Assembly: GCA_964613475.1 (NCBI GenBank)
Contig: CAZTGV010000004.1
Span: 12,375-76,374 of the forward strand
DNA from: an uncultured Gemmatimonadota bacterium
Lineage (GTDB): Bacteria; Gemmatimonadota; Gemmatimonadetes; Palauibacterales; Palauibacteraceae
DNA: 64,000 nt
Reading direction: 5' to 3'
Shown: positions 15,052 to 64,000 of the stretch, piece by piece
How the letters are laid out: the number at the start of each line of letters is the position of its first letter
Position numbering within the stretch: position 1 is the stretch's first letter
Made by a program: the position numbers and the translations under genes
Notes under the pieces: generated by a model
Databases searched by the model: none
The model's input: only the letters and a program-made list of their open reading frames with translations
Told to the model about the DNA's origin: nothing

Positions 15052-15115
15052 GCGTCCCTTTCTTCCCGCGTCCCCGCCGGGGTCTCCGGCGAGCTTCGCG
15101 CGCCCCCGGCCCGCA

Positions 15116-15550
15116 TCACATGCCCTCCAGCCCGAGCTCGGTCCGCGCCCGATCCATGATCTCCGGGGTGATCTCCTCGATCTCCCGCTCCTTCGCCCAG
15201 TCGGCGTAGATCCGCTTCACCATCCCGCGCACGAAGCTCGGCACGCGCTCGAGCCGCTCCACCGCCTCCAGGCTCCACCTCACCGGTGCGGCGCGCTGGT
15301 CGCGGAAGGCGTCCGGTCGCCCCTCCCGGACCGAGCCGCGGACCAGCTCCATCGGCTGCTCGGGGACCGTCCGCCCCCCCACCTTCACGCCCAGGCTGCT
15401 CACGAGCTGCGTCTCCATCGGATTGGTGAGCAGGGCGGTCTTGCGGCCGCACGCCGGGCAGCGGAACACCGCGGCCAGGGTGCCGTCCCCGGGAACCGCC
15501 CGTTCCTCGAAGGCCATCTGCCGGTCGCACTCGACGCACAGGAACTTCAT
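15116..15550 (-). CDS. zinc-ribbon protein with C-terminal PCP_red-like domain
   Basis: ATG at 15550 forms an ATGA overlap with the Mrp stop. N-terminal CVEC...CPAC zinc ribbon. C-terminal segment RWSLEAVERLERVPSFVRGMVKRIYADWAKEREIEEITPEIM. Confidence 0.7.
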   Translation of the reverse strand: MKFLCVECDRQMAFEERAVPGDGTLAAVFRCPACGRKTALLTNPMETQLVSSLGVKVGGRTVPEQPMELVRGSVREGRPDAFRDQRAAPVRWSLEAVERLERVPSFVRGMVKRIYADWAKEREIEEITPEIMDRARTELGLEGM

Positions 15551-16452
15551 GGCTCCCGTCTCGCTCCGCGCTCCGACGATCGCGACTCTTCCAGGAGCCG
15601 ATCCGTCAGGGCGCGCAAGCCCCGCCCCGCCGCGGTCTCGAGGAGACCGGCCGGGTCCCCCGCCTCGGCGCGCTCCGCCGCCCCCGGATCGAAGGGAAGC
15701 CGGCCGAGCAGGGGCACGCCGAACCGCGTGGCCAGCGCCCGCCCGGCGTCCCCCGGAAAGAGGGGCGAGAGCTCGGAGCAGCCCGGACAGGCGTAGCCGG
15801 CCATGTTCTCGACGATCCCGAGCACCCGGATGCCGCGCCCCTCGCACAGCGCGAGCGCGCGCTCCACGGACGCCCGCGAGGCGCCGGAGGGGAGGGTGAC
15901 CGCCACCGCGCCTTCGAGGTCCGGCGCGAGCCCGGCCAGCTCCAGCAGCCGCTGGGCGCCCGGGGGGAGGTCGACCACCAGCAGATCGCGCTCCCCCCAG
16001 GCCACGTCCGACAGGAACTCGCGGAGCGTCCCCCGCTCCTGGACCCCGCGCCACACGAAGCCCTCCGCTCCCGGCTCCCGCCACTCGAGCGGGCGGCCCT
16101 CCCCCAGGAAGAGGGAGGTGGCCATCAGCGCCACCCCCGCCGCCGTGTCGGCCGGCCGCACGCCGTTCGCGCCCACCTCCAGCGGCCCGGCGTCCGCCCC
16201 GAGCAGCCGGGCGGCGGTCGGACCGTTCAGGTCCGCGTCCAGCAGGCCCACCCGCCGGCCCGTCGCGGCGGCCGCCGCGGCCAGGCCGGCCGCGACCAGG
16301 CTCTTCCCCACCCCACCCTTGCCGCTGGTGACCGCGACCAGCCGACGGATGCCGGACAACCGGGCGGCGACCCTCTCCTCCTGCCGGCGCAGCTGACCGG
16401 GCAGGTCGGAGCCGTCCGCCTCCGACAGCTCGTGGTAGGTCCGGATCCGCAT
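15547..16452 (-). CDS. Mrp/NBP35/ApbC-family Fe-S cluster carrier ATPase
   Basis: ATG at 16452. Deviant Walker A VTSGKGGVGKS, VVDLPPG, and CPGC in GYACPGCSE. The ORF-track N-terminal extension to 17799 is R/P/G-rich and overlaps other genes. Confidence 0.9.
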   Translation of the reverse strand: MRIRTYHELSEADGSDLPGQLRRQEERVAARLSGIRRLVAVTSGKGGVGKSLVAAGLAAAAAATGRRVGLLDADLNGPTAARLLGADAGPLEVGANGVRPADTAAGVALMATSLFLGEGRPLEWREPGAEGFVWRGVQERGTLREFLSDVAWGERDLLVVDLPPGAQRLLELAGLAPDLEGAVAVTLPSGASRASVERALALCEGRGIRVLGIVENMAGYACPGCSELSPLFPGDAGRALATRFGVPLLGRLPFDPGAAERAEAGDPAGLLETAAGRGLRALTDRLLEESRSSERGARREP

Positions 16453-16463
16453 CCCCCGGTCCG

Positions 16464-16847
16464 TCACAAGTCCCAGCCGGCCCGCGCCAGCATCCAGAGG
16501 TTCACCAGGACGACCACCAGCGCGGTGAGGTAGAAGCCGCTGCCCAGCGCCGCGTCCGGTCGCGGGAAGAAGGCGCCCCCGATGAGGGCGGGGAGCCGGA
16601 GCGCGTGAACCGCCCACACCAGCCGGGCCACCCACCGGTTCTGCCACCACCAGAGCGCCCAAACGATGATCGCCAGCACCGCGACGCCCGCCAGCAGCCA
16701 GATCCACACCGGGCCCCGCCCCGCCGGAAGCGCACCACGGCCGTGCGCCACCCAGACCGCGGCCAGATAGAGGAGGCCCACGTGCAGGTAGACGAACGCC
16801 GCTTGCCGGAACTTCCGGGATCGCTCGGGACCGTGCGCGGGCGCCAT
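16464..16847 (-). CDS. hypothetical 4-TM membrane protein
   Basis: ATG at 16847 (MAPAHGPERSRKFRQAAFVYLHVGLLYLAAVW...). It has four hydrophobic helices and lies 11 nt upstream of the Mrp gene. Confidence 0.5.
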   Translation of the reverse strand: MAPAHGPERSRKFRQAAFVYLHVGLLYLAAVWVAHGRGALPAGRGPVWIWLLAGVAVLAIIVWALWWWQNRWVARLVWAVHALRLPALIGGAFFPRPDAALGSGFYLTALVVVLVNLWMLARAGWDL

Positions 16848-23960: not shown

Positions 23961-24056
23961 TGGCGGGAACGTGTGGGAATCGAACCCACCCGGGACGCTC
24001 ACGCGCCCCGCGCTCGCTTTGAAGGCGAGGAGCGACACCAGTCGCCATCCGCTCCC
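23961..24056 (-). tRNA. selC: tRNA-Sec (anticodon UCA)
   Basis: The 96-nt minus-strand sequence is GGGAGCGGATGGCGACTGGTGTCGCTCCTCGCCTTCAAAGCGAGCGCGGGGCGCGTGAGCGTCCCGGGTGGGTTCGATTCCCACACGTTCCCGCCA. Anticodon loop CUUCAAA. 6-bp D stem with a 4-nt loop. 7-bp variable arm. TTCGATT T loop. The CCA end is encoded. The 3' half closely resembles E. coli selC as I recall it. Confidence 0.9.
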
Positions 24057-29139: not shown

Positions 29140-29143
29140 AAAG

Positions 29144-29506
29144 TGGAGGCGGCGGGAATCGAACCCGCGTCCGCGAGCCCATCCGCTACAGGTCCTACGT
29201 GCGTAGCCTGCGCTTCGTGTCTCGCCGGCGACGGGTCCGCAGGCGACCCGCTTCCGGCCAGCCGCGTTCGGCTTTCGCCATCTCGCCGACGACGTCCGCG
29301 GCGGACGTCGACGGCCAGCCCGATTCATCGTCGCCTCCCACCCCGCCTCGGGCCGGGCCGAGCGGAAGACGGGCTACGTCAGATTACGCAGCCAGCGCCA
29401 AGTTGTCGTTGGCAGCTATGATGGTTCCCGGTGTTTTACGAGGTACCCGAGCACCTCGGCACGCACCCGCGGCTTCCGGTTCACGCGTCGAAGCCGTGTC
29501 GCCCCC
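29144..29506 (-). ncRNA. ssrA: tmRNA (transfer-messenger RNA)
   Basis: 5' end GGGGGCGACACGGCTTCGACGCG. 3' end GGGTTCGATTCCCGCCGCCTCCA. The acceptor stem has a G3:U pair. The tag reading frame GCT GCC AAC GAC AAC TTG GCG CTG GCT GCG TAA spans 29416-29384 and encodes AANDNLALAA. The terminal CCA is not fully encoded. Confidence 0.9.
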
Positions 29507-41104: not shown

Positions 41105-41300
41105 TCACGGGCACGGACGGGCACGTCTCCTGGCTCGAGGCGCCGCAGCGGCCGGCCTTCCAGGGACCCCGCGAGCGGGGCGCCCCGTGGCATCGGGGAC
41201 CGCTGCTTCCCGGCGTTCGACGCCGGACCTCTCACAGTGGCGGGGCCGCGTCGGGTTCGCACCGACTTCCGTTTGGCCCCGTCCGTGTCTGTCGAGGAAA
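41105..41300 (-). promoter_or_regulatory. cobalamin (B12) riboswitch
   Basis: The minus strand reads ACGGAAGTCGGTGCGAACCCGACGCGGCCCCGCCACTGTGAG (GCCACTG at 41241-235). The B12 box GCCAGGAGACGTGCC is at 41134-120. P1-like pairing CACGGACGGGG ... CCCGTCCGTG. It lies immediately upstream of the binding-protein gene. Confidence 0.85.
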
Positions 41301-41346
41301 CCTTAGGGGAGGTCGCCGCCCCGCCGCAAGACGTCGGCCGCGCGGC

Positions 41347-51511: not shown

Positions 51512-51945
51512 GCGCCGTTCGCGTCGCGATGGCCGTGATAGACCGCGTCCAGCACGCCGTTCACGAAGCGCGGGCTCTCGTCGCTGCCGTACCGTTCGGC
51601 CAACCGCACCGCCTCGTGGACCGCGACCTTCCCGGGCACGTCGTCCGCGTACCGCAACTCGGCGACCCCGATCCGCAGGATGGCGCGATCGACCGCCGCC
51701 AGCCGGTCGATCCGCCAGTTCGGCATGGCCGCCGTGAGCACCGCGTCGATCTCCTCCAGGTGCGCGTCCACCCACTCGAGCAGCCGCTCCGCGTAGGGCC
51801 GGTACCGCGGCGAGATGCGGCGGCGGGAGAGCGCCTCGCGGGCGAACGCCGCCGGCCGACCCCGTCCGGCCATGTCCCACCCGTACAGGAGCTGCAGCGC
51901 CCAGCTCCGCGCCCGGCTCCGGACGTGGGTCGCCGGCCGGGTCAA
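51508..51945 (-). CDS. nusB: transcription antitermination factor NusB
   Basis: RSRARSWALQLLYGWD...WRIDRLAAVDRAILRIGVAEL...AVHEAVRLAERYGSDESPRFVNGVLD. The TTG start at 51945 is tentative. Confidence 0.8.
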   Translation of the reverse strand: MTRPATHVRSRARSWALQLLYGWDMAGRGRPAAFAREALSRRRISPRYRPYAERLLEWVDAHLEEIDAVLTAAMPNWRIDRLAAVDRAILRIGVAELRYADDVPGKVAVHEAVRLAERYGSDESPRFVNGVLDAVYHGHRDANGA

Positions 51946-51967
51946 CGCGGAGCGCCCGGCGCGCCCC

Positions 51968-52438
51968 TCACCCGCCGGAGGGGAACCGGGCGAACAGGTC
52001 GCACATCTCCAGCGCGGCGCCCGCCGCCTCGGCGCCCTTGTTGCCGGCATCCCCGCCCGCCCGGGCCAGCGCCTGCCGGAGGTCGTCGGTGGTGAGCACG
52101 CCGAAGGCGACCGGCACGCCGCTCTCCGCGCACAGGCGGGAGAGGCCCGCCGCGACCCCCTGGCAGATGTACTCGAAGTGCGGGGTCTCCCCCCGGATGA
52201 CCGCCCCCAGGGCGACGACCGCGTCGTAGCCCGTCTCGACCGCGCGGGCCGAGGCGGAGACGAGCTCCCAGCCCCCGGGCACCCGCACCACGTCCACGTC
52301 GGACTCGGACACGCCCCGGGCCAGCAGCTCCCCGCGGGCCCCCTCCAGCAGGCGCTCGGTCACCATCGGGTTGAACCGGCTCACGACCAGGCAGATGCGC
52401 CGCCCCCGGCCGTCGGGCTCCCCCCGGAACTCCGGCAT
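51968..52438 (-). CDS. ribH: 6,7-dimethyl-8-ribityllumazine synthase
   Basis: 156 aa. VVSRFN...VRVPGGWELV...GAVIRGETPHFEYI. Confidence 0.9.
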   Translation of the reverse strand: MPEFRGEPDGRGRRICLVVSRFNPMVTERLLEGARGELLARGVSESDVDVVRVPGGWELVSASARAVETGYDAVVALGAVIRGETPHFEYICQGVAAGLSRLCAESGVPVAFGVLTTDDLRQALARAGGDAGNKGAEAAGAALEMCDLFARFPSGG

Positions 52439-52459
52439 CCGCCGGGCGCTCCGCCTCGC

Positions 52460-53680
52460 TCAGGACGAGCCGAGGAGATGGCCGAGCTTCTCCCGCTTCG
52501 CGTCCAGGTAGAGCCGGCTCCGGGTCGAGGCGTCGATCTCCAGCGGCAGGCGGTCGGTGATCCGGAGGCCGAAGCCCTCGAGGCCGGAGAGCTTCTTGGG
52601 GTTGTTCGTCATGATGCGGATGGAATGGAGGCCGAGGTCCACCAGGATCTGCGCCCCGATGCCGTAGTTCCGGAGGTCGGGCGGGAAGCCGAGGACCTCG
52701 TTGGCCTCGACCGTGTCGTGTCCCTGGTCCTGGAGCTCGTACGCCCGGAGCTTGTTCAGCAGCCCGATCCCGCGCCCCTCCTGGTCCAGGTACACCAGCA
52801 CCCCCGCGCCCTCCTCGACGATCCTGGTCATCGCCGCGTCCAGCTGGGCGCCGCAGTCGCAGCGCCGCGAGTGGAACACGTCGCCGGTCAGACATTTGGA
52901 GTGGACCCGGACGAGCACGTCCTCCAGCCGCCCCACCTCCCCGCGCACCAGCGCCACGTGCTCCCGGCTGTCCACGTCGTTCCGGTAACCGATGATCCGG
53001 AAGGCGCCCCAGGGCGTCGGGAGCTCCGCCTCGGCGACCCGGTGCACGAGCCGCTCGTTCTTGAGCCGGTAGGAGACGATCTGCGCGACGGTCACGAACG
53101 GGATCCCGTGTCGATGCGAGAAGGCCTCCAGCTCCGGACGACGGGCCATCGTGCCGTCCGGGTTCAGGATCTCGCAGATGACCCCCGCCGGCCGCAGGTC
53201 GGCCATCCGGGCCAGGTCCACCGAGGCCTCCGTCTGGCCGACCCGCTGCAGCACGCCCCCGGGCTTCGCCCGGAGCGGGAAGATGTGGCCGGGACGCATG
53301 AGGTCGGTCGGGCGGGTGTCGGGGTTCACCGCCACCTGGATCGTGCGCGCCCGGTCGTGGGCGCTGATCCCGGTGCTCACGCCGAACTCCGAGCGGGCGT
53401 CGATCGACACGGTGAAGGCCGTCTCGTTCGGGTCGGAGCGCCGCCCGTTGGCCATGAGGGGGAGGTCGAGGCGGTCGGCGATCTCCCCCGCGATGGTGAG
53501 GCAGACGAGGCCCCGGCCGTGGGTCGCCATGAAGTTGATCTTCTCGGCGGTGATCTTCTCGGCCGCGCAGACCAGATCCCCCTCGTTCTCCCGGTCCTCG
53601 TCGTCCGCCACGATGACCAGGTCGCCCCGTCGCACGGCGGCGATCGCGGTCTCGACGGCGTGCTCGAAATCGGCTGGCAT
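52460..53680 (-). CDS. ribBA: bifunctional 3,4-dihydroxy-2-butanone-4-phosphate synthase / GTP cyclohydrolase II
   Basis: ATG at 53680 (alternative GTG at 53758, a GTGA overlap with ribE). VIVADDEDRENEGDLV, and HSKCLTGDVFHSRRCDCG with the GCH-II zinc cysteines. Confidence 0.9.
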   Translation of the reverse strand: MPADFEHAVETAIAAVRRGDLVIVADDEDRENEGDLVCAAEKITAEKINFMATHGRGLVCLTIAGEIADRLDLPLMANGRRSDPNETAFTVSIDARSEFGVSTGISAHDRARTIQVAVNPDTRPTDLMRPGHIFPLRAKPGGVLQRVGQTEASVDLARMADLRPAGVICEILNPDGTMARRPELEAFSHRHGIPFVTVAQIVSYRLKNERLVHRVAEAELPTPWGAFRIIGYRNDVDSREHVALVRGEVGRLEDVLVRVHSKCLTGDVFHSRRCDCGAQLDAAMTRIVEEGAGVLVYLDQEGRGIGLLNKLRAYELQDQGHDTVEANEVLGFPPDLRNYGIGAQILVDLGLHSIRIMTNNPKKLSGLEGFGLRITDRLPLEIDASTRSRLYLDAKREKLGHLLGSS

Positions 53681-53754
53681 TCGGTTCGCCACCTTGTCTG
53701 GGTTCCGCGTCCGCCCGCCGGCGACCCGGCGGATGCGCGCCGCGTCCGTGCCGC

Positions 53755-54357
53755 TCACCGGTCGGGGGCGTACGGGATCAGCAGCTTCCGCACGTACTTC
53801 CCGACCAGGTCCGCCTCCACGTTGGCCCGGTCCCCGGGCCGGAGGCGGCAGAGATTGGTCCGGCTCCATGTATACGGGATGATCGCGACCTCCGCGACAT
53901 CGCCGGAGAGCGCGGCCACCGTGAGGCTGACGCCGGCCACCGCGAGGGAGCCCCGCTCCACCGTCACCGCGGCGACCTCCGCGGGGAGCCGGACGCGCAG
54001 GCGGGCCCCCTCCTCCTCGGGGCGGACCTCGAGCACCTCCGCCACCCCGTCGACGTGTCCCTGCACGAGGTGTCCGCCCAACCGGTCGTCCGCCCGGAGG
54101 GCCCGTTCGAGATTCACCCGGCAGCCGGGCCGGAGGTCCGCCAGCGTGGTCCGGGCGAGCGTGGCGGGGACCGAGGTGAAGGAGAAGGCGCCGGCGCCCC
54201 GCGCGGTGACCGTCTGGCAGACGCCGTCCACCGCCACGCTCTCCCCCTCGTCCAGCCCCTCGGCGAAGGCGCCCGCCTCCACGCGGAAGTCCACGCCGTC
54301 CGACCGGGCGCGCCGATCCGCCACCGTCCCGACCGTTTGCACGAGGCCGGTGAACAT
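53755..54357 (-). CDS. ribE: riboflavin synthase alpha chain
   Basis: MFTGLVQTVGTV, with the internal repeat GHLVQGHVDGVAEV. Confidence 0.9.
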   Translation of the reverse strand: MFTGLVQTVGTVADRRARSDGVDFRVEAGAFAEGLDEGESVAVDGVCQTVTARGAGAFSFTSVPATLARTTLADLRPGCRVNLERALRADDRLGGHLVQGHVDGVAEVLEVRPEEEGARLRVRLPAEVAAVTVERGSLAVAGVSLTVAALSGDVAEVAIIPYTWSRTNLCRLRPGDRANVEADLVGKYVRKLLIPYAPDR

Positions 54358-55616
54358 CAGGCCTCCTCCGACGAGGTCCGCGCGGCGTGCTTCGAGGCTC
54401 CGCGCCCGCGGAGCGCCGCCCCGACCCGCCCTCCGAGGGCGCGGGCCAGCTCCCGCAGGCGCGCGTGCTCCAGGACCAGGAGGGTGTCGCGGCCCAGGGC
54501 GCGCCGCGAGACCGGCCGCCACCCGCCGCCGGGCGGGTGGCCTTCCCCACCCGGCGGCCCGAGGCCGGGGAAGGCCGGCACCCCCTCCGGACCGTAGAGT
54601 CGCGGGGCGTAGATCAGGTGCAGGCGCTGGAGCAGGCCCGCCGCGAGCAGCGACGCCGCCACCCGGCCGCCCCCCTCCACCAGCACCGACTGCACCCCCT
54701 CGCCACCGAGCGCCGCCCAGGCCGCCTCCGGATCCAGCGCGTGCGGGCCCGCCGCCTCCACCGGGAGCACCCGCACGCCGCGGGCCTCGAGCGCACGCCG
54801 GGTCGTGGCGGGAGCGTCCGGCGAGGCCAGGACCCAGGTCGGCGCCTCATCCACCGTGCGGACGAGCGCCGCCTCCGGCGACAGCCTCAGCCCGGGGTCG
54901 AGCACGACGCGGATCGGGGGGCGCCGGGGCGCCGGCTCCCCGCGCGCGGTGAGGCGGGGGTCGTCGACCGAGGCGGTGCGCCGGCCGACCAGCACCGCGT
55001 CGTGACCCGCGCGCAGCCGGTGGACCTCGCGCCAGGCGCGGGGGCCGCTCACCGCGCTGCGGACGCCCGGTCGCTCGGCGATCCGCGCGTCCAGGCTGAG
55101 CGCCAGCTTGAGAGCGCCGAAGGGCAGCCCGCGGGCGTGGCGCCACAGGAAGGCCGCGTTGGCGCGGCACGCCGCCGCGGCGCCGACGCCGAGCGCCACC
55201 TCCACGCCGGCGGCGCGGAGGCGCTCGATCCCGCCGCCCGCCCGCGGGTTCGGGTCACGGGTCGCGACCACCACGCGGCGCACGCCGGAGGCGAGCACCG
55301 CCTCGACGCAGGGCGGCGTCTTGCCCGCGTGCGCGCACGGCTCCAGGGTCAGGTAGATCGTCGCACCACGCGCCGCCGGCCCCGCCGCCCGCAGCGCGAC
55401 CACCTCCGCGTGCTCGGTGCCGAACGCCCGGTGCCACCCTTCGCCCGTTACCCGCCCGTCCCGCGCCACCACCGCACCGACCAGCGGGTTGGGGGAGACC
55501 GCCCCCCAACCGCGACGCGCCAGGGCGACCGCCCGCGCCATGAGCCGCCGGTCGCCCTCGGAGCCCCGCCCTACCGGCTCCGGGACGGAAGCCGGAGCGC
55601 CGGGCCGCCCGCTCAT
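54357..55616 (-). CDS. ribD: bifunctional diaminohydroxyphosphoribosylaminopyrimidine deaminase / 5-amino-6-(5-phosphoribosylamino)uracil reductase
   Basis: ATG at 55616 forms an ATGA overlap with purM. HAEVVAL...TLEPCAHAGKTPPC deaminase zinc site and a C-terminal reductase domain. Confidence 0.9.
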   Translation of the reverse strand: MSGRPGAPASVPEPVGRGSEGDRRLMARAVALARRGWGAVSPNPLVGAVVARDGRVTGEGWHRAFGTEHAEVVALRAAGPAARGATIYLTLEPCAHAGKTPPCVEAVLASGVRRVVVATRDPNPRAGGGIERLRAAGVEVALGVGAAAACRANAAFLWRHARGLPFGALKLALSLDARIAERPGVRSAVSGPRAWREVHRLRAGHDAVLVGRRTASVDDPRLTARGEPAPRRPPIRVVLDPGLRLSPEAALVRTVDEAPTWVLASPDAPATTRRALEARGVRVLPVEAAGPHALDPEAAWAALGGEGVQSVLVEGGGRVAASLLAAGLLQRLHLIYAPRLYGPEGVPAFPGLGPPGGEGHPPGGGWRPVSRRALGRDTLLVLEHARLRELARALGGRVGAALRGRGASKHAARTSSEEA

Positions 55617-56686
55617 CCCGCGGCGGCCCCCGCCGCGCCGAGGCCCTCCAGGCGCACGGACCCGGAGCCTCGCGTCAGCTCGCCGCACGTCCAGGCGGGG
55701 CAGCCGGCGCTCCGCACGTCGCGGAGCACCGCGGCTTCGTCCCCGGACCGCACGACCGCGATCATCCCGACCCCCATGTTGAAGGTCCGGAACATCTCCC
55801 AGTCCGAAGCCCCGCTCGCTTCCGCCAGGAAGCGGAACTCGGCCGGTGGCTCCCAGCTCAACGCGTCCACCACCGCGTCCAGCTCCGGCGGCAGCACCCG
55901 GTCCAGGTTGCCCGGGATCCCGCCCCCGGTGATGTGGGCCAGGGCGCGCACGCGGCCGGCCGCGCAGGGCTCGCGGAGGGGCACCAGATAGGAGCGATGC
56001 GGCCGCAGGAGCACCTCGGCCACCGTGCCTCCGGTGCCGGGAAGCGCGTCGTCCACCGCCATCCCGAGCCGCTCGAAGATCAGCTTGCGTACGAAGCTGT
56101 ACCCGTTCGTATGAAGCCCGTTCGAGGCGAGGCCGATCAGCCGATCGCCGACCTCCAGCCCCCGGCGGGCCACCGCGTCGAAGGCGTGTCGGCCGACGAT
56201 GAAGCCCGCCAGGTCGTACTCTCCCGGCGCGTACAGGTCCGGCATCTCGGCCGTCTCTCCCCCGAGCAGGGCGCACCCGTTCTCGCGGCAGGCGCGGGCC
56301 ACTCCGGACACGACCTGGAGCGCGACCTCCGGCTCCAGCCGGCCAGTGGCGAAGTAGTCGAGGAAGACGAGCGGCAGCGCGCCCTCGGCCAGCAGGTCGT
56401 CCACGCAGTGGTTGACCAGGTCCTCGCCGATCGTCTCGTGCCGGCCCGCCCGGAAGGCGACCTTGAGCTTGGTCCCGACCCCGTCGGCGCTGGCCACGAG
56501 CTCGGTCCCGGGCGGGGCGGCGAAGCGGCCGCCGAAGGACCCGAAGGCGGAGCGAACCGCGTCGGTGCGGGTGGAGGCCACCAGCTCGGCGAGGCGCGCC
56601 TTGACCGTCGCGGCGGCCGTGCGGTCCACCCCGGCGTCGCGATACGTGAGCCCGGCGGGACCGGGCCGGGGCCCGGCCCCGCTCAT
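55613..56686 (-). CDS. purM: phosphoribosylformylglycinamidine cyclo-ligase (AIR synthetase)
   Basis: LTYRDAGVD...DGVGTK...DLVNHCVDDLLAEGA.PLVFLDY...GGETAEMP. Confidence 0.9.
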   Translation of the reverse strand: MSGAGPRPGPAGLTYRDAGVDRTAAATVKARLAELVASTRTDAVRSAFGSFGGRFAAPPGTELVASADGVGTKLKVAFRAGRHETIGEDLVNHCVDDLLAEGALPLVFLDYFATGRLEPEVALQVVSGVARACRENGCALLGGETAEMPDLYAPGEYDLAGFIVGRHAFDAVARRGLEVGDRLIGLASNGLHTNGYSFVRKLIFERLGMAVDDALPGTGGTVAEVLLRPHRSYLVPLREPCAAGRVRALAHITGGGIPGNLDRVLPPELDAVVDALSWEPPAEFRFLAEASGASDWEMFRTFNMGVGMIAVVRSGDEAAVLRDVRSAGCPAWTCGELTRGSGSVRLEGLGAAGAAAG

Positions 56687-58941
56687 TCCCGCGCCGACTC
56701 CGAGAGCGACGGCTCCACCGGCTCGGAAGCGGGGGCGGCGCCGGCGCCGTTCTCCGGATCGGAGTCGGCCGCGCCGGGCCCGGCCGGGCCGCGGGCTTCG
56801 GACCGGGCCACCAGCCCGCTCCGCGCGCTCTCGATCAGCACGCGGCGGGTCTGCTCGTCCACGCTCCCCGGATCCGCTCGCACCGGAAGCTCCACCGTGA
56901 AGGTGGAGCCCTCGCCGACCGCGCTCTGGAGGGAGATGCTCCCCCCCAGCAGGGCGAGGAGCTTGCGGCTGATGGACAGCCCGAGGCCCGTGCCGCCGTA
57001 CTCACGGGTCGGCGACTGGTCCGCCTGGCGGAAGTCCTCGAAGATCACCTCGCGGTCCGCGGGCCCGATGCCGATGCCGGTGTCCTCGACCTCGAAGCGG
57101 AGCCGGTCGCCCTCGACGCGGGTCCGCAGCGCCACCCACCCCTCGGGCGTGTACTTGAGCGCGTTCTCGAGCAGGTTTAACAGAACCTGCCGCAGCTTGG
57201 TCGCATCGGTGCGAACCGTGGGGAGCCCGTCCTCGAGCTCCACCCGGAAGTCGAGCCCCTTCTCGTCGAACAGCGGCCCGAGCGCGTTCGCCACTTCGGT
57301 GACGAGCTCCTCGACCCGGAGCTCGGCGAGCCGCACCGGCATCTTCCCCGCCTCGATCTTGGAGAGGTCCAGGATCTCGCTGATCAGGGTGAGCAGGTGC
57401 TCCGAGGCGCTCCGGATCTTCTCCAGCGCCTTCCCCTGCTCCGCGGACGGATCCCCGTAGATGCCCTCCCGGAGGAGCGAGGTGTAGCCGAGCATCGCGT
57501 TGATCGGGGTCCGCAGCTCGTGGCTCATGCGGGCCAGGAATTCGCTCTTGAGGCGCGATGCCTTCTCCAGCTCCTGGCTCTGCCAGACCAGGAGCCGGTT
57601 CCGCTCCGCCAGCTCCGCCGTCGCGACCTCGATCCGCTCCTCCAGCTTTTCGTTCAGGCTCCGGAGCTCCTCGGCCAGGCGCTCGTTCTCCCGCTCCTGG
57701 GTCAGGTCGCGCAGCACCGTCACGACCGCCACGGGCTCGTCCAGCCGGCCCAGGATCTTCGTGTTCACCGCCTCCACCGGGATCGAGCCGCCGGTGGCCG
57801 GGTCGGTGAGCGACAGCCGCTCCTCCCGCCGCACCCGGCCCTGCAGCAGGAACTCGTTCACCAGGCTCGTGAAGCGGGTCACGTTCGCCCACAGGCGGCG
57901 GCGCCGCTCTCCCTCCGAGAGTCCCTCCGGCAGGTCGAACAGCCGCTCGGCCTCCGCGTTCATCAGGACGATGTTCGACTGCCCATCGGTGACCAGGATC
58001 GGCTCGGCCGCGTTTTCGATGATCGCGTTCAGCCGCTGCGTCTCCCTCCGGGCCCGGTGCTCGGCCGCGCGCGAGCGCCGGTACTCGAGGTCCAGCTCGT
58101 TCACCGCCCGCTTCAGGTCCGTGATGTCGCGAAGGACGGAGATCACGTGGCCGCCCTCGCTCCCCTCCGGCCGGAACGCCGTGGTGAGCACCTCGAACAG
58201 CAGGTCGGAGCCGTCGGTGGGATCCACCAGGTTGAGCTCCCGGCTGGCGCCGGCCTCCCCGGCCATCCGCTCCTGCGTGAGGAAGGCGCTGAACAGAAAG
58301 GTGTTCGTGCGTACCGCCCGCGCCCGCCCCACGCTGTCGCCCGGCTGGGAAGTGAAGAGGTCCATCGCGCGGCGGTTCGCCACCACGATGTCGTTGCGCG
58401 CGTCGGTCAGGATGACCGGATCGACCAGCTCGTCCTGGATGCGGGCCAGCAGCGCGCGCTCCCGCCCCAGCCGCTCGGCCCGCGCGCGCAGCCGCTCCGA
58501 CCGGCGCAGGCGGTGCAGCGCCGGCCCGCAGCGCTGGATCGCTCGCCCGAGGCGTTGCGCCTCCTCGTCCAGCGCCTCGGCGCGCAGCAGGACGCCGCCG
58601 AGCGGGACGTCCCGACCATCGGCGAAGGGGAGGACCACGCACGGGTCGAACGGCAGCGAGCCCTTCGAGGCCCCGGACAGGAGGACGGGCTCGGCGTCTC
58701 CGAGGGCGCGAGAGAGGCTCTGGGACTCCACCTCCACCGGCCCGGGCCGGGCGTCCGACTCGCCGACGGCCCCGTGCAGCTCCCAGCCACCCTCGCGCCG
58801 CCGCAGGGCCACCGCCCCCCGGCGGAACGGACCGCGGGTCAGCGCGGTGGCGAGCAGCACGGTCACGGCCTCCCGGATTCCCGACGCGCGGGAGATCTCC
58901 TCCAGGAGCTCGGCGACCAGCCGGTCCTCCGGGTCGCTCAT
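56683..58941 (-). CDS. soluble multi-sensor histidine kinase (GAF + PAS domains, HisKA, HATPase_c), no receiver
   Basis: H box SHELRTPINAMLGYTSLL, N box LLNLLENALKYT, G boxes DTGIGI and GGTGLGLSISRKL. No obvious TM helix. It starts 24 nt after the gvpA stop and forms an ATGA overlap with purM. Confidence 0.85.
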   Translation of the reverse strand: MSDPEDRLVAELLEEISRASGIREAVTVLLATALTRGPFRRGAVALRRREGGWELHGAVGESDARPGPVEVESQSLSRALGDAEPVLLSGASKGSLPFDPCVVLPFADGRDVPLGGVLLRAEALDEEAQRLGRAIQRCGPALHRLRRSERLRARAERLGRERALLARIQDELVDPVILTDARNDIVVANRRAMDLFTSQPGDSVGRARAVRTNTFLFSAFLTQERMAGEAGASRELNLVDPTDGSDLLFEVLTTAFRPEGSEGGHVISVLRDITDLKRAVNELDLEYRRSRAAEHRARRETQRLNAIIENAAEPILVTDGQSNIVLMNAEAERLFDLPEGLSEGERRRRLWANVTRFTSLVNEFLLQGRVRREERLSLTDPATGGSIPVEAVNTKILGRLDEPVAVVTVLRDLTQERENERLAEELRSLNEKLEERIEVATAELAERNRLLVWQSQELEKASRLKSEFLARMSHELRTPINAMLGYTSLLREGIYGDPSAEQGKALEKIRSASEHLLTLISEILDLSKIEAGKMPVRLAELRVEELVTEVANALGPLFDEKGLDFRVELEDGLPTVRTDATKLRQVLLNLLENALKYTPEGWVALRTRVEGDRLRFEVEDTGIGIGPADREVIFEDFRQADQSPTREYGGTGLGLSISRKLLALLGGSISLQSAVGEGSTFTVELPVRADPGSVDEQTRRVLIESARSGLVARSEARGPAGPGAADSDPENGAGAAPASEPVEPSLSESARE

Positions 58942-58965
58942 GGCCTCCAGCGGGTCCGCGGGTCG

Positions 58966-59253
58966 CTAGGACTCTTCCCGCATCCGCCGCTCCAGCGTGG
59001 CGAGCCGCGATTCCAGCTCCACGGCATCCGCCGCGCCGAGCGCCGGCCGGGACACCGTCCCGATCGCGCTGATCGAGTCGGCGTACTTCAGATACGTCTC
59101 CACCGAGGCGACCACGATGCGCGCCTCGACGCTCACCAGGTCGATCCCGACCAGGCTCACGCGCACGTACGCGTCGATCACGATCCCCTTGTCCAGGACC
59201 CGATCGAGGACATCGATCAGGCTGGTTCCTGCGGGCGCTCTCTCGACCGCCAT
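58966..59253 (-). CDS. gvpA: gas vesicle structural protein GvpA
   Basis: [48 protein letters not shown] is almost identical in pattern to canonical GvpA. RBS GGAGGAGG. It carries a C-terminal extension of about 25 aa. Confidence 0.9.
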
Positions 59254-59269
59254 TGCCTCCTCCTCTCGC

Positions 59270-59623
59270 CTATTCGCCGGCGCTTCCGCCGGGCTTCCGG
59301 GAGCGCTCGATCGCCTCGAGCCGGGCTCCGAGCGACGCCATCTGCTCTTCCAGCCCGCCGATCGCCTCCCGGCGCGCCGCGCCGCTGCTCAGACTCGGAT
59401 CGCTCCGCCACCAGTCCAGCCCGATCTCCTGGGCCTTGTCGATCGAGCACACGAGCAGCCGGATGCGGATCGTGAGCAGCTCGACATCGGCCAGCCCCAC
59501 GCGGATGTCGCCCGCGATGACCAGCCCCTTCTCCAGAATACGGTCCAATACGTCCACGAGGCTCTGGCCCCGCGTGGACGGCCCGAGATCGCGTCTCGTC
59601 GCCACCGTGGTCCTCTCGTCCAT
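59270..59623 (-). CDS. gvpJ: gas vesicle protein GvpJ (GvpA/J/M family)
   Basis: [52 protein letters not shown]. Confidence 0.85.
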
Positions 59624-59657
59624 CCCGATCCCTTCGGCCCGCCTCGCGAGCTCGGCT

Positions 59658-59939
59658 CTAGAGCAGCCCGCGGAGCGGGCCGAGGTCCAGCCGGAGGTCC
59701 CGATCCTCCAGGCCGAACGCGTCTTTCAGCTCGTCCATCCGCTGGCGCAGGCGGAGGAAGGCCTGACCGAGGCGCTCCACCTCCTCCTCGCTCAGCGAGC
59801 CCGACTCCATGCGCCCGACCGCCTGCCGCTCGAGCACCTGCCGCAGCAGCTCGAGGACGGTGAGCACCAGCTGCGCGAGTCCCCGGTCCAGGTCCTCACG
59901 CTCCAGGTCCAGCCGCTCGGGGAGCGTCGCGCCGCTCAT
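59658..59939 (-). CDS. gvpK: gas vesicle protein GvpK
   Basis: ATG at 59939 forms an ATGA overlap. LDRGLAQLVLTVLELLRQVLERQAVGRMESGSLSEEEVERLGQAF. Confidence 0.8.
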   Translation of the reverse strand: MSGATLPERLDLEREDLDRGLAQLVLTVLELLRQVLERQAVGRMESGSLSEEEVERLGQAFLRLRQRMDELKDAFGLEDRDLRLDLGPLRGLL

Positions 59940-60664
59940 CCGGCGAACGAGTACGGGGGCGACGGGCCGTCGATCACGATCCGCAGCTCGGAGCGGCCGG
60001 CGCGCCAGGCTCTGGCCGACGCCGCGTACGCCTCCGCGTCCGGCCGCTTCACCAGATGGGCGATGGTGGCCGTCCGCGCTCCGGCGTCCGGGACGTCCAC
60101 CCGCTCGTCGCGCACGAGCGGCCCGACCCGCTCCCGCAGCTCCTCCGCCAGGTGGCGCCCCCACTCCAGGGCCTCCCGCTCGGCGCGCTCGCGCCGGGCG
60201 AGCGATTCCAGGTACGCGCGGCCCGCCCCCGGCTCCCGCTCCGCTCGGTCCGGGCCGCCATCGCGCCGCCCGCTCCCGTTCGAGGAGGGCTCGCGCGCGG
60301 CCGGACCCGACGTCCCGGAGGCCGCCCGGACCGCGATCGCGAACTCGACCGCCCCGCGCACCGCCTCCAGCCGCGTCCGGTAACGCTCCCGATCCTCGAG
60401 GAGGCGGTTCACGAGCGCCTCCCCGGTGGCGAACCACTGGCCGAACCGGGCGGGGAGCGGCGTCGCGTCGCCACCGGCCGCATCCCGCACCACCCGATCG
60501 TGGGCGCGCACCCGGTCGAGCGACGGGCTCGGCCGCACCGGGAGCTCCGAGACGAGCGCGCGGAGAGGCCCCGACCTCAACACGCGAACCGGCGAGCCGT
60601 CGACGCCGGGCGCGCTCCCGGCCGCCAGCCCGGGAGGGCCGACCGCGTACAGGTACCAGCCCAT
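59936..60664 (-). CDS. gvpL: gas vesicle protein, GvpL/GvpF family
   Basis: MGWYLYAV... N-terminus, VLPARFG-like (PLPARFG) and C-terminal GPSPPYSF. Confidence 0.8.
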   Translation of the reverse strand: MGWYLYAVGPPGLAAGSAPGVDGSPVRVLRSGPLRALVSELPVRPSPSLDRVRAHDRVVRDAAGGDATPLPARFGQWFATGEALVNRLLEDRERYRTRLEAVRGAVEFAIAVRAASGTSGPAAREPSSNGSGRRDGGPDRAEREPGAGRAYLESLARRERAEREALEWGRHLAEELRERVGPLVRDERVDVPDAGARTATIAHLVKRPDAEAYAASARAWRAGRSELRIVIDGPSPPYSFAG

Positions 60665-60921
60665 CAGCCGGCCGTCTCTCCGAACGGCCCGGCCGGAGGC
60701 CGCGCGGCGGCGCGCTGCAGCGTCTCGACCGAGGAGAGCACCAGGTCGAGCCCGAGGTACAGCAGATCGACCCCCGCCACGCCGATCACCACCTCGCCGG
60801 TCACCACGACTCCGCGGTCCAGCACGCGGCTTACCAGAGCGGCCAGGGCCATCTCCTCGTCGGCCGGGGCGGCCGACCGCCGCCGCTCAACCGGCGCGCG
60901 GGTGATCCGGTCCATCCTCAT
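60664..60921 (-). CDS. gvpS: small gas vesicle protein of the GvpA/J/S family (GvpS-like)
   Basis: LAALVSRVLDRGVVVTGEVVIGVAGVDLLYLGLDLVLSSVETL. The start may instead be the ATG at 60852, which avoids a 35-nt overlap with gvpF. Confidence 0.75.
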   Translation of the reverse strand: MRMDRITRAPVERRRSAAPADEEMALAALVSRVLDRGVVVTGEVVIGVAGVDLLYLGLDLVLSSVETLQRAAARPPAGPFGETAG

Positions 60922-61717
60922 CCGATCCTTCCATGAACCGATAGGGCGCCCAGGGACCCGAGAAGGCGACCCGGAGACCCACCGCTTCGAGGTCCGGTGT
61001 CCGCGCCTCCACGTCGCTCCGCAGCGCCGCCTCCTGGTCTTCCGGTACGAGCAAAGCCGCGTTCAGGACCACGGGCAGGTCCGCGGCATCGGTCGGCGCC
61101 TCCAGGAGCCGCGCCGCGTCCGTGCGCGGGCGCAGCGCGTCCAGCAGCTCCCGGGCGAGCCGGCGGGCGCTCGCGACCGACTCCTCGTGCAGGATACGGG
61201 CGCGCTTACGCTCCAGCAAATAGCGCGTCCCGGGCGCCGCGGCGTCGATCCGCGCGTCCAGCTCGGCGACCTCGTCGGACAGCTCCGGGAGCCGGGCGGC
61301 GATCTCGTCCGCGTCGTAGCTCACCTTGAGGTCCCACTCCCGGCGCCCGCGCAGGCGCGCCAGCTCCGCGCGGATCGTCGCGTCCCGCGCCTCGACGTCG
61401 CGCGCCAGGCGCTCCAGCGAGCTGTACAGGGTGAGGAGGCGCGCGGGGAGGATGGTGGTCGCGTCCACGAAGCGGTTGATCACCCCCTCGTGGCGAAGGC
61501 CCTGCTCGGCCACCCAGTCCAGGTCCGTAAGCTTCGGGCGCACGGCCTCCGCTTCGTAGCGCTCCGCCGGAACCCGGCCGATGGCGGCGGCGAAGGCCCC
61601 GAGCTCCACCACCTCGACCGGCCGGTCCGCCACCCCGCGCAGGTCGGAGGGCGGATGAGTGCCGCTCGGCAGGAAGCCGTACAGGTAGATCACGTCCGTC
61701 ACCGCTCCCTCCTCCAC
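60887..61717 (-). CDS. gvpF: gas vesicle protein, GvpF/GvpL family
   Basis: VIYLYGFLP..., TTILPARLLTLY, and C-terminal SGPWAPYRF. Confidence 0.8.
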   Translation of the reverse strand: MEEGAVTDVIYLYGFLPSGTHPPSDLRGVADRPVEVVELGAFAAAIGRVPAERYEAEAVRPKLTDLDWVAEQGLRHEGVINRFVDATTILPARLLTLYSSLERLARDVEARDATIRAELARLRGRREWDLKVSYDADEIAARLPELSDEVAELDARIDAAAPGTRYLLERKRARILHEESVASARRLARELLDALRPRTDAARLLEAPTDAADLPVVLNAALLVPEDQEAALRSDVEARTPDLEAVGLRVAFSGPWAPYRFMEGSDEDGPDHPRAG

Positions 61718-61748
61718 CCGGTCCGGCCGCGCGTGGCTCGCCCGCGGC

Positions 61749-63662
61749 TCACGCCACCCGCCTCCACGCCCCCGCGAACGCCCGGAGAGCCCCGGGGCCG
61801 GCGGGGGGCGGCATCTGGTCCGGGGCGGCCAGGACCGGGGCCTCCGCCGCCCGGCAGGCGGAGAGCTCGGCCCCCATCCGCACCGCCTCGGCGGCCGAGG
61901 TCCGGTTCCAGATCAGGCCGGCGAGGGGGACTCCTGCACGGACCAGGCCGTCGCACAACCGCCGGGTCTCGGAGACCACCATCGGCTCGGGCAGGGTCAC
62001 GGGCACCGCGCCGGTCCGGCCCGGGTCCGCCAGCGCCTCCCGGAAGGCGCGGATCCGCCGGGCGAGGCGCAGCAGCCGCTCCGCCGGCTCGCGCAGCCCC
62101 ACCACCTCTCGGTACTTGAGCACCAGCCGCATCAGGGCGTGGATCCAGCCGAGCGCCACCTCCGGCGCCTCGAGGAAGCGGAAGAAGTGCCCGGTCGGCG
62201 CCGCGTCCAGCACGAGCACGTCCTCGGCGTCCGCCTCCGCCAGGAGCGCGAGCGCGGCCAGTTCGTCCAGGCCGGGCGGGGCCAACTCCAGAAAGCGCTC
62301 CAGCACCTCGCGGTCCAGCGTGGCCCCGCCCGCCAGCCCGACGCCGGCCGCCACCGCCTCGACGTCGGAGCGGCTGCGCTCCCGGAAGGCGCGTAGCTCG
62401 GCCTCGGGCTCCACCTGCCGGACGAGCAGCCGCTCCCCCACCCGCACGCCGTCCCGGCCCACGGGCCGACCGAGCAGGTCGCCGATCGAGCCCGCCGGAT
62501 CCACCCCGACCAGGAGGACGGAGGAGGATGCGGAGAGCGCCAGGGCGCAGGCGGTGGCGCAGGTGGTCTTCCCGACCCCGCCCTTGCCGACGAACAGGAG
62601 CCGCTCGCGCCCGCCGAGCAAGAGCCCTGCGGCGCTTGGCTTCGCCGCGCCCGCCGCCCGCTCCCGCCTCGCGCCCTGCCCGGAACCGCGTCCCGCGGTC
62701 GTCCGCCGCGGCGCCGCCTTCGGGCCCGCGCCGAAGGCCGGATGGGGCGCCGTCCGCCAGCCGTCGCCCCACGCGCGAAGCGCCGCGCAGCCCGCGCGGG
62801 CACCCGCGGGCGCGGCGAACGCCGGGGCTCCGCCGTCTCCGCTGCCCTCCGAAGCCCCCAGAGCGCCGGCGGCCGCGGCCCGCGACGCCGGCGCGCCCGT
62901 CCCCTCGGACCCGACCCGCACCGTGGCGGCGAGCCGGAGGCCGCGCGCCCGGAGCGCCCCGGCGAGCCGGGCCGATTCCTTCCGCACGGCCGGCTCCCCG
63001 CGCCACGTCAGCACCCAGGCCGCGCGGTCCAGGAAGCGCTCGTACGCCCTCCGCTCCGCCGCCAGGTCGTCCAGGAAGTCCTCCGAGGCCAGGCGCACCG
63101 GGCCGCCGGCGAAGCTGGAGGCCACGACGGTCGCCTTGCGGGCCAGGGCGCCGAGCCACGTCTCCCAACCGCGGAGGAGCGCGCCCGCCTCGAGCAGCCG
63201 GAGCGCGTGGCCGGTGGGGGCGGTGTCGACGACCAGGCGGAGGCCCTCCCGTCGAGCCAGGGCCGCGAGCCGGCGCGCCCCCATCCACTCGTCCGCCCCC
63301 GGCAGGGCGCGGCCGAGGATGTCCTCGATGTCCTCGTCGTCCAGGTAGGTCCCGCGGTCGAGGAGTTCCCGGAGGGGCTCCCGGGCCCCCTCCAGCCAGC
63401 CGGCGAGCGCCGCGGTGGCGTCGAAGGCCTCCAACCGGAGGTCGGCCGCGCACTCGCACGCCACGGGCTCCCCCGACGGCACCGGCTGTCCGAACAGGTC
63501 TCCCAGGGAATGGGCCGGATCCAGCGAGAGGAGATGGGTGGGCTCGCCGCGGTCGGCGAACGAGAGGGCGAGCGCGCCCGCGGTCGTGGTCTTTCCCACC
63601 CCGCCCTTCCCGACGACGACCACGGGTCGATCGCCGGCCGCCTCGAGCAGCCGGGGGATCAC
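61749..63662 (-). CDS. tandem (pseudo-dimeric) ArsA/Get3-family ATPase embedded in the gas-vesicle operon
   Basis: GTG at 63662 forms a GTGA overlap with the gvpG stop. There are two halves. Each has a deviant Walker A (VVVVGKGGVGKTT, LLFVGKGGVGKTT), an SLDPAHS/GVDPAGS segment and the ArsA signature (VVDTAPTGHALRLL, VLDAAPTGHFFRFL). The halves are joined by an Ala/Gly-rich linker. Confidence 0.8.
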   Translation of the reverse strand: MIPRLLEAAGDRPVVVVGKGGVGKTTTAGALALSFADRGEPTHLLSLDPAHSLGDLFGQPVPSGEPVACECAADLRLEAFDATAALAGWLEGAREPLRELLDRGTYLDDEDIEDILGRALPGADEWMGARRLAALARREGLRLVVDTAPTGHALRLLEAGALLRGWETWLGALARKATVVASSFAGGPVRLASEDFLDDLAAERRAYERFLDRAAWVLTWRGEPAVRKESARLAGALRARGLRLAATVRVGSEGTGAPASRAAAAGALGASEGSGDGGAPAFAAPAGARAGCAALRAWGDGWRTAPHPAFGAGPKAAPRRTTAGRGSGQGARRERAAGAAKPSAAGLLLGGRERLLFVGKGGVGKTTCATACALALSASSSVLLVGVDPAGSIGDLLGRPVGRDGVRVGERLLVRQVEPEAELRAFRERSRSDVEAVAAGVGLAGGATLDREVLERFLELAPPGLDELAALALLAEADAEDVLVLDAAPTGHFFRFLEAPEVALGWIHALMRLVLKYREVVGLREPAERLLRLARRIRAFREALADPGRTGAVPVTLPEPMVVSETRRLCDGLVRAGVPLAGLIWNRTSAAEAVRMGAELSACRAAEAPVLAAPDQMPPPAGPGALRAFAGAWRRVA

Positions 63663-64000
63663 TCCGGCGGCGCCGGTCGCCTCCCGGAGTCCCCGCCCGA
63701 CACCGTCCCGTCTCCCCGCTCCGGGGTATCCGCATCGGCGGGCGGCTCCCCCGCCGCGCCGGGACCGCCCTCCATGCCCAGGACGCCGCCCGCGCCCGGA
63801 AGGCCGAGGCGGCGCCGCCACTCGCGCGTCTCCCGCAGCCGGCGCATCAGCTCGGCCTCGCGCTCCACGTACGTCTCCTCATCGATCTCGCCCAGCTCGA
63901 GTCGGAGCTGGAGCTCGAGCAGCTTCTCGCGCACGGCCGCGTCGTCCGCCACCTCGCGGAGCGCCGCGTCCCGCGTCTGGCGGAGCGAGAAGCCGAGCAG
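63659..64000 (-). CDS. gvpG: gas vesicle protein GvpG, partial (5' end beyond window)
   Basis: The frame is open to the window edge. ...LREVADDAAVREKLLELQLRLELGEIDEETYVEREAELMRRL matches the GvpG helical motif. A Gly/Pro-rich tail follows. Confidence 0.75.
   Translation of the reverse strand: MLGFSLRQTRDAALREVADDAAVREKLLELQLRLELGEIDEETYVEREAELMRRLRETREWRRRLGLPGAGGVLGMEGGPGAAGEPPADADTPERGDGTVSGGDSGRRPAPPE

Follow-up and report, generated by a model that had tools for sequence, protein, structure and literature searches.

How does a soil bacterium assemble a gas vesicle, if it does so at all, from a gene cluster in which neither gvpN nor gvpC is found? How the extremely hydrophobic shell protein GvpA stays soluble, reaches the growing shell and is inserted there is part of the same question, and the model clusters studied so far all rely on GvpN and usually on GvpC. 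The question is raised by a gas-vesicle (gvp) cluster at the right-hand end of a 64,000-nt stretch of DNA from an uncultured Gemmatimonadota bacterium (contig CAZTGV010000004.1), hereafter the window, in which a gene for an ArsA-like ATPase stands among the gvp genes. We consider it reasonably likely that the window holds the distal nine genes of a ten-gene operon on the chromosome of a soil Gemmatimonadota, gvpF1-gvpG-arsA2-gvpF2-gvpS-gvpL-gvpK-gvpJ-gvpA-HK (HK, histidine kinase), encoding a gas-vesicle system without GvpC and GvpN, with a Get3-like ATPase as holdase and a PAS-domain kinase in control. We establish what each gene encodes, the close packing of the genes on one strand, the retention of the module in several phyla, and an ArsA/Get3 fold with intact catalytic motifs. 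The operon is real, intact and probably functional, and represents a variant that is uncharacterised but widespread in soil bacteria.

The cluster lies on the minus strand, and profile searches support all eight gene identities that an earlier note had proposed from the letters alone (gvpG, ArsA-like, gvpF, gvpS-like, gvpL, gvpK, gvpJ and gvpA, in this order); with the Gas_vesicle, GvpK, GvpG and GvpL_GvpF profiles every Gvp assignment held. The Pfam hits of the core gvp genes (F/L, G, K and the minor GvpA paralogues) are all above the gathering cut-offs. Specifically, the window contains the 3′ 113 codons of gvpG (63659-64000; full gene 133 aa; Pfam GvpG E 3e-10, profile positions 27-67 only), followed by arsA2 (61749-63662), which encodes a fused two-domain ArsA/Get3(TRC40)-family ATPase of 637 aa (Pfam ArsA_ATPase E 4e-60). 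The GvpF/L paralogue gvpF2 (60887-61702; Pfam GvpL_GvpF E 1e-49) encodes 271 aa and matches the GvpF structures 6l5d and 4qsg, the mechanically called open reading frame (ORF) of 276 aa having the wrong start codon. Next come the gvpS-like gene for a small GvpA-family protein (60664-60915; 83 aa, as called on the identical contig L001 described below; Pfam Gas_vesicle E 3e-10) and gvpL, a further GvpF/L paralogue (59936-60664; 242 aa; Pfam GvpL_GvpF E 1e-39). The gvpK gene (59658-59939; 93 aa; Pfam GvpK E 1e-29) was over-extended upstream in the mechanical ORF (59658-60437; 259 aa), in which the profile matches residues 175-259, and L001 has the same 93-aa gene call. The last two gvp genes are the gvpJ-like gene for a minor GvpA-family protein (59270-59623; 117 aa; Pfam Gas_vesicle E 8e-17), whose top NCBIfam match is GvpJ with a score under the cut-off of that family, and gvpA for the major shell protein (58966-59253; 95 aa, comprising a 70-aa core and a 25-aa C-terminal tail; Pfam Gas_vesicle, PF00741, E 7e-16). 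Gas_vesicle matches for A, J and the S-like protein bear out the three GvpA-family paralogues of the earlier note.

All of these genes are co-directional; neighbours either overlap by 1-29 bp or lie no more than 46 bp apart, which leaves no room for gvpC or another unassigned ORF. The start codon of gvpK (ATG) and the stop codon of gvpL overlap by 4 bp, as do the GTG start of arsA2 and the stop of gvpG. The G+C content at third codon positions is 0.90-0.95 throughout the cluster and there are no frameshifts, as had been noted before. A strong Shine-Dalgarno sequence, GAGGAGGAGG, lies 5′ of gvpA, and the kinase gene starts 24 bp after gvpA. A scan of 55000-64000 for sigma-70 promoters and intrinsic terminators returned nothing and is uninformative at ~75% G+C. 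No second gvp copies are present in the window.

The earlier note had described the cluster as cut by the window edge, in keeping with the partial GvpG match, and its continuation is provided by a soil-metagenome contig (L001, 5356 bp) that matches the window without a difference over 4834 bp and encodes the same ATPase. L001 contains the full-length 133-aa GvpG (E 2e-15) and, upstream of it, the 3′ end (154 codons) of gvpF1, a third GvpF/L paralogue (Pfam GvpL_GvpF E 3e-45); the cluster thus has three F/L genes and not two, as counted within the window. In the loci of relatives that were examined, no gvp-related gene lies upstream of gvpF1, and the operon therefore most likely starts a few hundred bases past the window edge, with gvpF1 as its first gene. 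Four relatives (L084, 8486-8660; L088, 3069-3238; L085, 8503-8755; L086, 4769-4960) share inverted half-sites in the divergent intergenic region 5′ of gvpF1, ATGCAA...CGGGCCC and, ~45-60 nt on, TTGCAT, and this pair may be an operator; for the operon of the window, the corresponding region lies past base 64000. No sigma-54 −24/−12 consensus was found upstream of gvpF1 in the relatives. On the far side of the intergenic region are genes for a conserved 200-270-aa protein of no known function and for a HAMP histidine kinase, and genes of the LuxC/LuxE acyl-reductase type lie upstream of the cluster in L084, L085 and L086 (LuxC only in L086).

A genome scan with the ATPase alignment yielded 80 loci, the six-frame ORFs of which were searched iteratively with the Gvp proteins of the window. 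Genes of the gvp family were found in 17 of the 80 (L001 and L002 included), and eight further contexts were added. The module is present in at least 20 loci from at least five phyla, with F-G-ArsA2-F-S-L-K as an invariant string, and its carriers are Gemmatimonadota, Acidobacteriota, Myxococcota/Deltaproteobacteria, Rokubacteria and Vicinamibacterales. In Gemmatimonadota (the window, L002-L004, L083-L085 and L088) the order is F-G-ArsA2-F-S-L-K-J-A-HK. In Deltaproteobacteria, Labilithrix, Rokubacteria and Vicinamibacterales it is J-A-HK-RR-F-G-ArsA2-F-S-L-K (RR, response regulator), and in Terriglobia, Terriglobales and Angelobacter it is ArsA2-F-S-L-K-J-A-HK-(RR)-F-G. The three gene strings are rotations of one module, J-A-HK-(RR)-F-G-ArsA2-F-S-L-K, and a terminal gvpA belongs to one of these rotations.

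The comparison also places the gene order, which the earlier note had called atypical. The distal position of gvpA among the gvp genes was read correctly and is unusual, as is the inserted ATPase, but gvpA is not the last cluster-linked gene, the accessory order is close to that of Bacillus megaterium, and the layout is standard across several phyla; because the module occurs in three rotations, we give a terminal gvpA less weight as a defining oddity of the locus. The B. megaterium cluster, gvpAPQBRNFGLSKJTU, has the accessory order F-G-L-S-K-J (PMC9501494), nearly the same as F-G-(ArsA2)-F-S-L-K-J in the window, although it has gvpN and P, Q, R, T and U, the shell gene upstream, and neither an ArsA-like ATPase nor a kinase in the list of its genes. 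The Streptomyces coelicolor cluster has the order gvpOAFG-JLSK (PMC9501494). Like the window, actinomycete clusters belong to high-GC soil bacteria, comprise A/F/G/J/L/S/K without gvpC and gvpN, and have an unclear physiological role. Unlike them (O-A-F-G-J-L-S-K), the window has the order F-G-ArsA2-F-S-L-K-J-A, with gvpA distal rather than near the start, and adds a second and a third GvpF/L, the ArsA/Get3-like ATPase and the linked PAS kinase. No GvpO match was found among the cluster genes in a Pfam scan that was limited to the cluster and did not extend to the rest of the window.

The absence of two canonical genes sets this cluster type apart from the studied models. In studied systems gvpN is needed for normal vesicle growth. 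Neither the window nor the kinase-type loci with their 10-kb flanks contain a match to a hidden Markov model derived from the four GvpN proteins of the Thiohalocapsa, Gemmatimonas, Anaerolineales and Dehalococcoidales clusters. A review describes GvpN as conserved in all clusters, yet its own table lists S. coelicolor without gvpN (Pfeifer 2022, PMC9501494). In agreement with the earlier note, which saw no gvpC-like repeat protein, the window contains no tandem repeat of ~99 nt (33 aa), a criterion that very divergent repeats could escape.

The shell protein itself is conventional in its core and distinctive in its C-terminus. GvpA scores 107.5 bits against the NCBIfam GvpA subfamily (cut-off 100). 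The alignment with the 71-aa GvpA of Anabaena (PDB 8gbs) runs from end to end over residues 1-70, of which 43 are identical (61%), and 32 of residues 1-63 are identical to B. megaterium GvpA2 (PDB 7r1c). Because the core aligns end to end with Anabaena GvpA, residues 71-95 are a true C-terminal extension, of the ~25 aa that the earlier note had given. B. megaterium GvpA2/B (7r1c, 88 aa) likewise has a C-terminal extension. Tails of 20-45 residues are present on all GvpAs of kinase-type clusters. In Gemmatimonadota the tail motif is typically (E/D)(L/M)DR(V/I)MAENxEL(K/R)(K/R)RL(D/E)EL, and the window and L083 have their own 19-residue version. Clusters that contain gvpN (L007, L008) have canonical GvpAs of 71-72 aa without a tail.

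The ATPase is a component for which the database name is probably misleading. JGI and NCBI name its homologues arsenite-transporting or arsenical pump-driving ATPase, and in Nodularia an ArsA gene adjoining gvp genes was filed under arsenate genes (PMC3610870), as would fit an ordinary arsenite-pump ATPase that stands among gvp genes by chance. The profile scores oppose this: the protein scores 213 bits against TIGR00345 (TRC40/GET3/ArsA family; cut-off 135) and 122 bits against the ArsA equivalog TIGR04291, for which the cut-off is 650. In the alignment to E. coli ArsA (1f48), APPGLDE and LPGADE of Get3 type replace GACTTE (Cys113) and SPCTEE (Cys422), and there is no cysteine opposite Cys172, so none of the three metalloid-binding positions is a cysteine. 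Furthermore, no cysteine is conserved across 17 gvp-linked homologues, the gene is translationally coupled to gvpG by its overlap and has a fixed place in the gvp clusters of many phyla, and no ars genes lie beside the ATPase gene in any Pfam-annotated locus, its neighbours being gvp genes. A chance arsenite-pump gene is thus very improbable. Arsenite ArsA proteins (E. coli 1f48/1ii0; Leptospirillum ferriphilum 9nbw) share the two-domain architecture and overall fold with the ATPase of the window and differ from it in these cysteines, in the equivalog score and in having arsB/acr3/arsD as partners instead of gvp genes. A metal or redox site formed by the near-invariant cysteines C71, C292 and C368 (alignment A2) was considered and rejected, as these residues are conserved only within the Longimicrobiales clade.

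The catalytic apparatus, by contrast to the cysteines, is retained. Both halves keep GKGGVGKT (deviant Walker A), the catalytic Asp, PGxDE and DTAPTGH; the last three, together with the P-loop lysines, occur in each half of every one of the 17 gvp-linked homologues, which come from several phyla. The catalytic-Asp motif is DPAHS and reads DPAGS in the C-terminal half within this clade. Among PDB sequences the top match is ARSA1 of Chlamydomonas, a fused Get3 homologue (5zme, E 4e-38), which ranks above bacterial ArsA. The AlphaFold model, computed from 114 sequences, has a predicted local distance difference test score (pLDDT) of 87.8 and a predicted template-modelling score of 0.89, and exhibits a pseudo-dimeric ArsA/Get3 fold. 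Foldseek assigns it to ArsA, ARSA1 and Get3 with probability 1.00, halves of Get3/TRC40 being matched; the best matches are two-domain ArsA proteins with target-normalised TM-scores of 0.62-0.71 (closed ArsA, 0.71). A CXXC zinc motif at the dimer interface is a feature of eukaryotic Get3; no conserved CXXC occurs in the gvp-linked ATPase alignment, nor would one be expected in a fused pseudo-dimer. As judged from these motifs and the predicted structure, the protein is a fused ArsA/Get3-fold ATPase that looks active, and not an arsenite-pump subunit. It resembles Get3/TRC40, including ARSA1, in PGxDE, DTAPTGH, the deviant Walker A motif, the pseudo-dimeric fold and a TIGR00345 score above the cut-off. 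It differs in that identity is only ~21-25%, in that no GET-pathway partner or membrane receptor is evident, and in that its candidate client, instead of being a membrane protein, would form the shell of an organelle made of protein alone.

The genomic distribution of the ATPase ties it to gas vesicles. A protein search retrieved 2606 homologues at E<=1e-10 among 8000 scored candidates, the named ones being from Longimicrobiales metagenome-assembled genomes and soil metagenomes. Each homologue whose contig was checked (P0001, P0003, P0041, P0083 and P0085; 5/5) lies within a gvp cluster, and the best genome matches nearly all do, the exceptions being L009 and L013 (a Lyngbya locus and a 3-kb contig). 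The association was recognised in 2010, when Castillo and Saier described two-domain ArsA homologues (~600-640 aa) in gvp clusters without ars genes, carried by cyanobacteria, Bacteroidetes/Chlorobi, one delta-proteobacterium and one acidobacterium, and proposed from comparative genomics, with no experiment, that the ArsA homologue 'energizes a biogenic step' (PMC2963123). Their acidobacterial example (arsA with two L/F, J, K and M) probably represents the same cluster type as the window; most of their other examples carry gvpN and hsp20, both missing from the window. An experimental test of the ArsA-gvp link was not found in the literature.

What the ATPase might do for the vesicle admits more than one answer. 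It could be a SIMIBI-class positioning or scaffolding ATPase akin to ParA and MinD that spaces or segregates vesicles, or an energy source for shell elongation in place of GvpN. Weak profile matches to ParA, MinD and CbiA, the lack of gvpN in kinase-linked clusters, and the open wording of Castillo and Saier's proposal leave room for such roles. Yet the ArsA/Get3 score of 213 bits compares with at most 49 bits for ParA/MinD, the fold is that of ArsA/Get3, and actinomycete clusters are listed with neither gene (PMC9501494). In addition, the ATPase and GvpN occur together in Thiohalocapsa, Gemmatimonas, Anaerolineales and Dehalococcoidales clusters, which speaks against a simple replacement. We therefore regard a positioning or elongation ATPase as improbable. 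The narrower idea that the ATPase substitutes for GvpN was rejected, since these four aquatic-type clusters contain both and the cluster of one relative contains neither.

A Get3-like holdase is the alternative that we favour. The ATPase would most likely hold or deliver the very hydrophobic GvpS, GvpA and GvpJ, or GvpG, at the expense of ATP, in the manner of Get3/TRC40, which target tail-anchored proteins, and not of an arsenite pump. ATPases of the Get3 type take up the hydrophobic segment of a client in a groove that ATP regulates, and an indirect hint at the client comes from hydropathy: no segment encoded in the cluster is more hydrophobic than one in GvpS that stops 23 residues short of the C-terminus. 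In its most detailed form, which we put forward tentatively and consider doubtful as a whole, the proposal is that the ATPase is a Get3-type targeting chaperone with non-membrane clients, which captures hydrophobic GvpS, GvpA and GvpJ and releases them upon ATP hydrolysis at the growing edge of the wall, gated by the PAS kinase and a CheY-like regulator. If true, this would add a new client class to the Get3 family and would explain how GvpA stays soluble before assembly. No paper linking Get3 with gas vesicles was found in literature searches.

The second addition to the classical gene set is the kinase. The HK gene (56683-58941, minus strand) encodes a cytoplasmic sensor histidine kinase of 752 aa with the architecture PAS-PAS-HisKA-HATPase_c (Pfam: HisKA E 8e-21, HATPase_c E 3e-30, PAS E 8e-18). 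Homologues of its sensor region (residues 1-470) follow gvpA directly in every like locus that is long enough (L002, L003, L006, L014-L017, L030, L065 and L083-L088; E 1e-34 to 1e-92), and the kinase is linked to gvpA in 11 of 12 relatives examined. This conservation indicates that the cluster extends down to 56683; gvpA, last among the gvp genes, is followed by one more member of the cluster. In L002 (a 4.46-Mb assembly) the gvpA-linked kinase, at 14622-16777, is split into calls of 410 and 305 aa, either by a frameshift or through misassembly. The sensor region retrieved 1081 homologues from the database, and all named ones are from Gemmatimonadota/Longimicrobiales. The nearest named homologues of both the ATPase and the kinase, all from metagenome-assembled genomes of this group, fit the GC-rich Gram-negative (diderm) host that the earlier note had supposed. 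Among three contexts looked up from the kinase side, two are gvp clusters and the third is a paralogue beside two-component genes. This paralogue (L089, 9001-11124; 54% identical over 82% of the sensor region) stands beside a receiver protein and a hybrid kinase and shows that the kinase family is not exclusive to gvp clusters. A single-domain receiver protein is encoded after the kinase in the second and third rotations of the module, and before gvpF1 in L002.

These elements can be combined into a working model. GvpA would form the shell, with GvpJ, GvpS, the three GvpF/L proteins, GvpG and GvpK acting in its nucleation and assembly. Shell protein would be made in excess, despite the distal position of its gene, thanks to the strong ribosome-binding site of gvpA and possibly to a more abundant gvpJ-gvpA transcript. 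Some of what GvpC does elsewhere at the outer surface may fall to the tail of GvpA. The cytoplasmic PAS kinase would couple vesicle formation to an intracellular signal, for example redox or oxygen state, acting through a CheY-like single-domain response regulator of the kind that is cluster-encoded in other phyla.

Whether the product is a buoyancy organelle is a separate matter. Every sequencing run in which the locus was detected is a soil or rhizosphere metagenome, and the cluster could be intact but serve something other than buoyancy, or be rarely or never expressed: small GvpA structures might have a role in stress, as debated for Streptomyces, or only tiny bicones might form without GvpN. 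The absence of gvpN and gvpC fits this, as does the statement of Hurt et al. that S. coelicolor and B. megaterium have not been reported to make vesicles natively (PMC10344784). Conversely, the Pfeifer review lists soil Bacillus and Streptomyces as forming gas vesicles (PMC9501494). Ten intact, packed genes whose order is conserved in at least five phyla point to selection on a working assembly system, and the GvpA core shares, as described above, 61% of its residues with a shell protein whose structure has been solved. In one soil metatranscriptome, contigs 90-98% alike have a depth of 30 over gvpA, 15 over gvpJ and 0-5 over the other gvp genes, a weak hint of transcription. On balance we view a non-buoyant or silent cluster as possible but not probable, and continue to favour a functional gas-vesicle operon.

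Several points weigh against a functional operon with a Get3-like holdase and kinase control. Gas vesicles have been seen in no organism with this cluster type, and literature searches found no report of them in Gemmatimonadota. The metatranscriptome contigs come from related organisms and may include DNA. The gvpN gene was found neither in the window nor in the relatives within flanks of 10 kb, but could lie elsewhere in the genome. As to the ATPase, we infer its chaperone role by analogy, it accompanies GvpN in the four clusters named above, and a close relative (L086, a 474-kb Gemmatimonadota-like contig, and L087) has the same operon without it. In L086 (4955-11211) gvpG is followed by gvpF2 after 19 bp, the other genes and their order being unchanged, and L087 has the same arrangement. 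By these gene contents the ATPase is not indispensable, and in our reading it would be helpful. A response regulator of the cluster type was not found in the window. The extension of GvpA, which the earlier note had called helical, is a helix (residues 74-94, following an alpha-beta-beta-alpha core) in a single-sequence AlphaFold model of low confidence (pLDDT 57) only; its interpretation as an amphipathic helix was dropped, the hydrophobic moment not being above that of shuffled sequences.

Relative to published work, the linkage to a kinase and regulator, the three cyclic permutations, the correlation between GvpA tail and cluster type, the ATPase-less variant and the Get3-type motif pattern appear to be new. 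Castillo and Saier did not report the kinase/regulator link, the permutations, the GvpA tail or the Get3-like motifs, and a phylogenetic screen by Hurt et al. deliberately favoured clusters with few non-gvp genes (PMC10344784). The missing gvpN, the linked kinase and the third gvpF/L gene were likewise no part of the earlier note. The cluster type, without gvpN and gvpC, is common in soil Gemmatimonadota and Acidobacteriota and occurs also in Myxococcota and Rokubacteria, and it widens the puzzle of why non-aquatic soil bacteria retain gas-vesicle genes. Three of its features lend themselves directly to experiment: the Get3-like ATPase, which some natural operons have and others of otherwise identical make-up lack, the tail that is part of GvpA, and the dedicated sensor kinase. 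Its main value is the testable lead on the Get3-like ATPase together with a compact gene set free of GvpC and GvpN, and it may supply compact GvpC-free gene sets for the engineering of acoustic reporters. The name 'arsenite-transporting ATPase' is probably wrong for hundreds of proteins in the databases.

Beyond the kinase, the window continues with purM, the start of which overlaps the HK stop by 4 bp, and with ribD, ribE and ribBA-like genes (52460-56686, minus strand); these names rest on translations and on synteny with L083, not on a profile search. L083, the closest relative, has the same purM and riboflavin genes downstream of its kinase. In L084, L086 and L088, alternative-complex-III-like genes (multihaem cytochrome, molybdopterin/Fe-S subunit, NrfD, ActD and cytochrome c) lie downstream of the kinase. 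The G+C content of the window in 2-kb windows is 66-80%, mostly 72-78%, and long ORFs of 678-1045 aa rich in Arg, Pro and Gly (51815-54952, plus strand; 57397-59475, plus strand; 61699-63735, minus strand; and others) are artefacts of high G+C and not genes. Elsewhere in the window are a tmRNA gene (29141-29506, minus strand; Rfam 140.9 bits) with the tag peptide ANDNLALAA, a selenocysteine tRNA gene (23961-24056, minus strand; anticodon TCA), from which the organism probably makes selenoproteins, and a cobalamin riboswitch aptamer (41120-41302, minus strand; 48.7 bits against a gathering score of 31.5). Together, these items indicate a chromosomal, housekeeping context for the locus.

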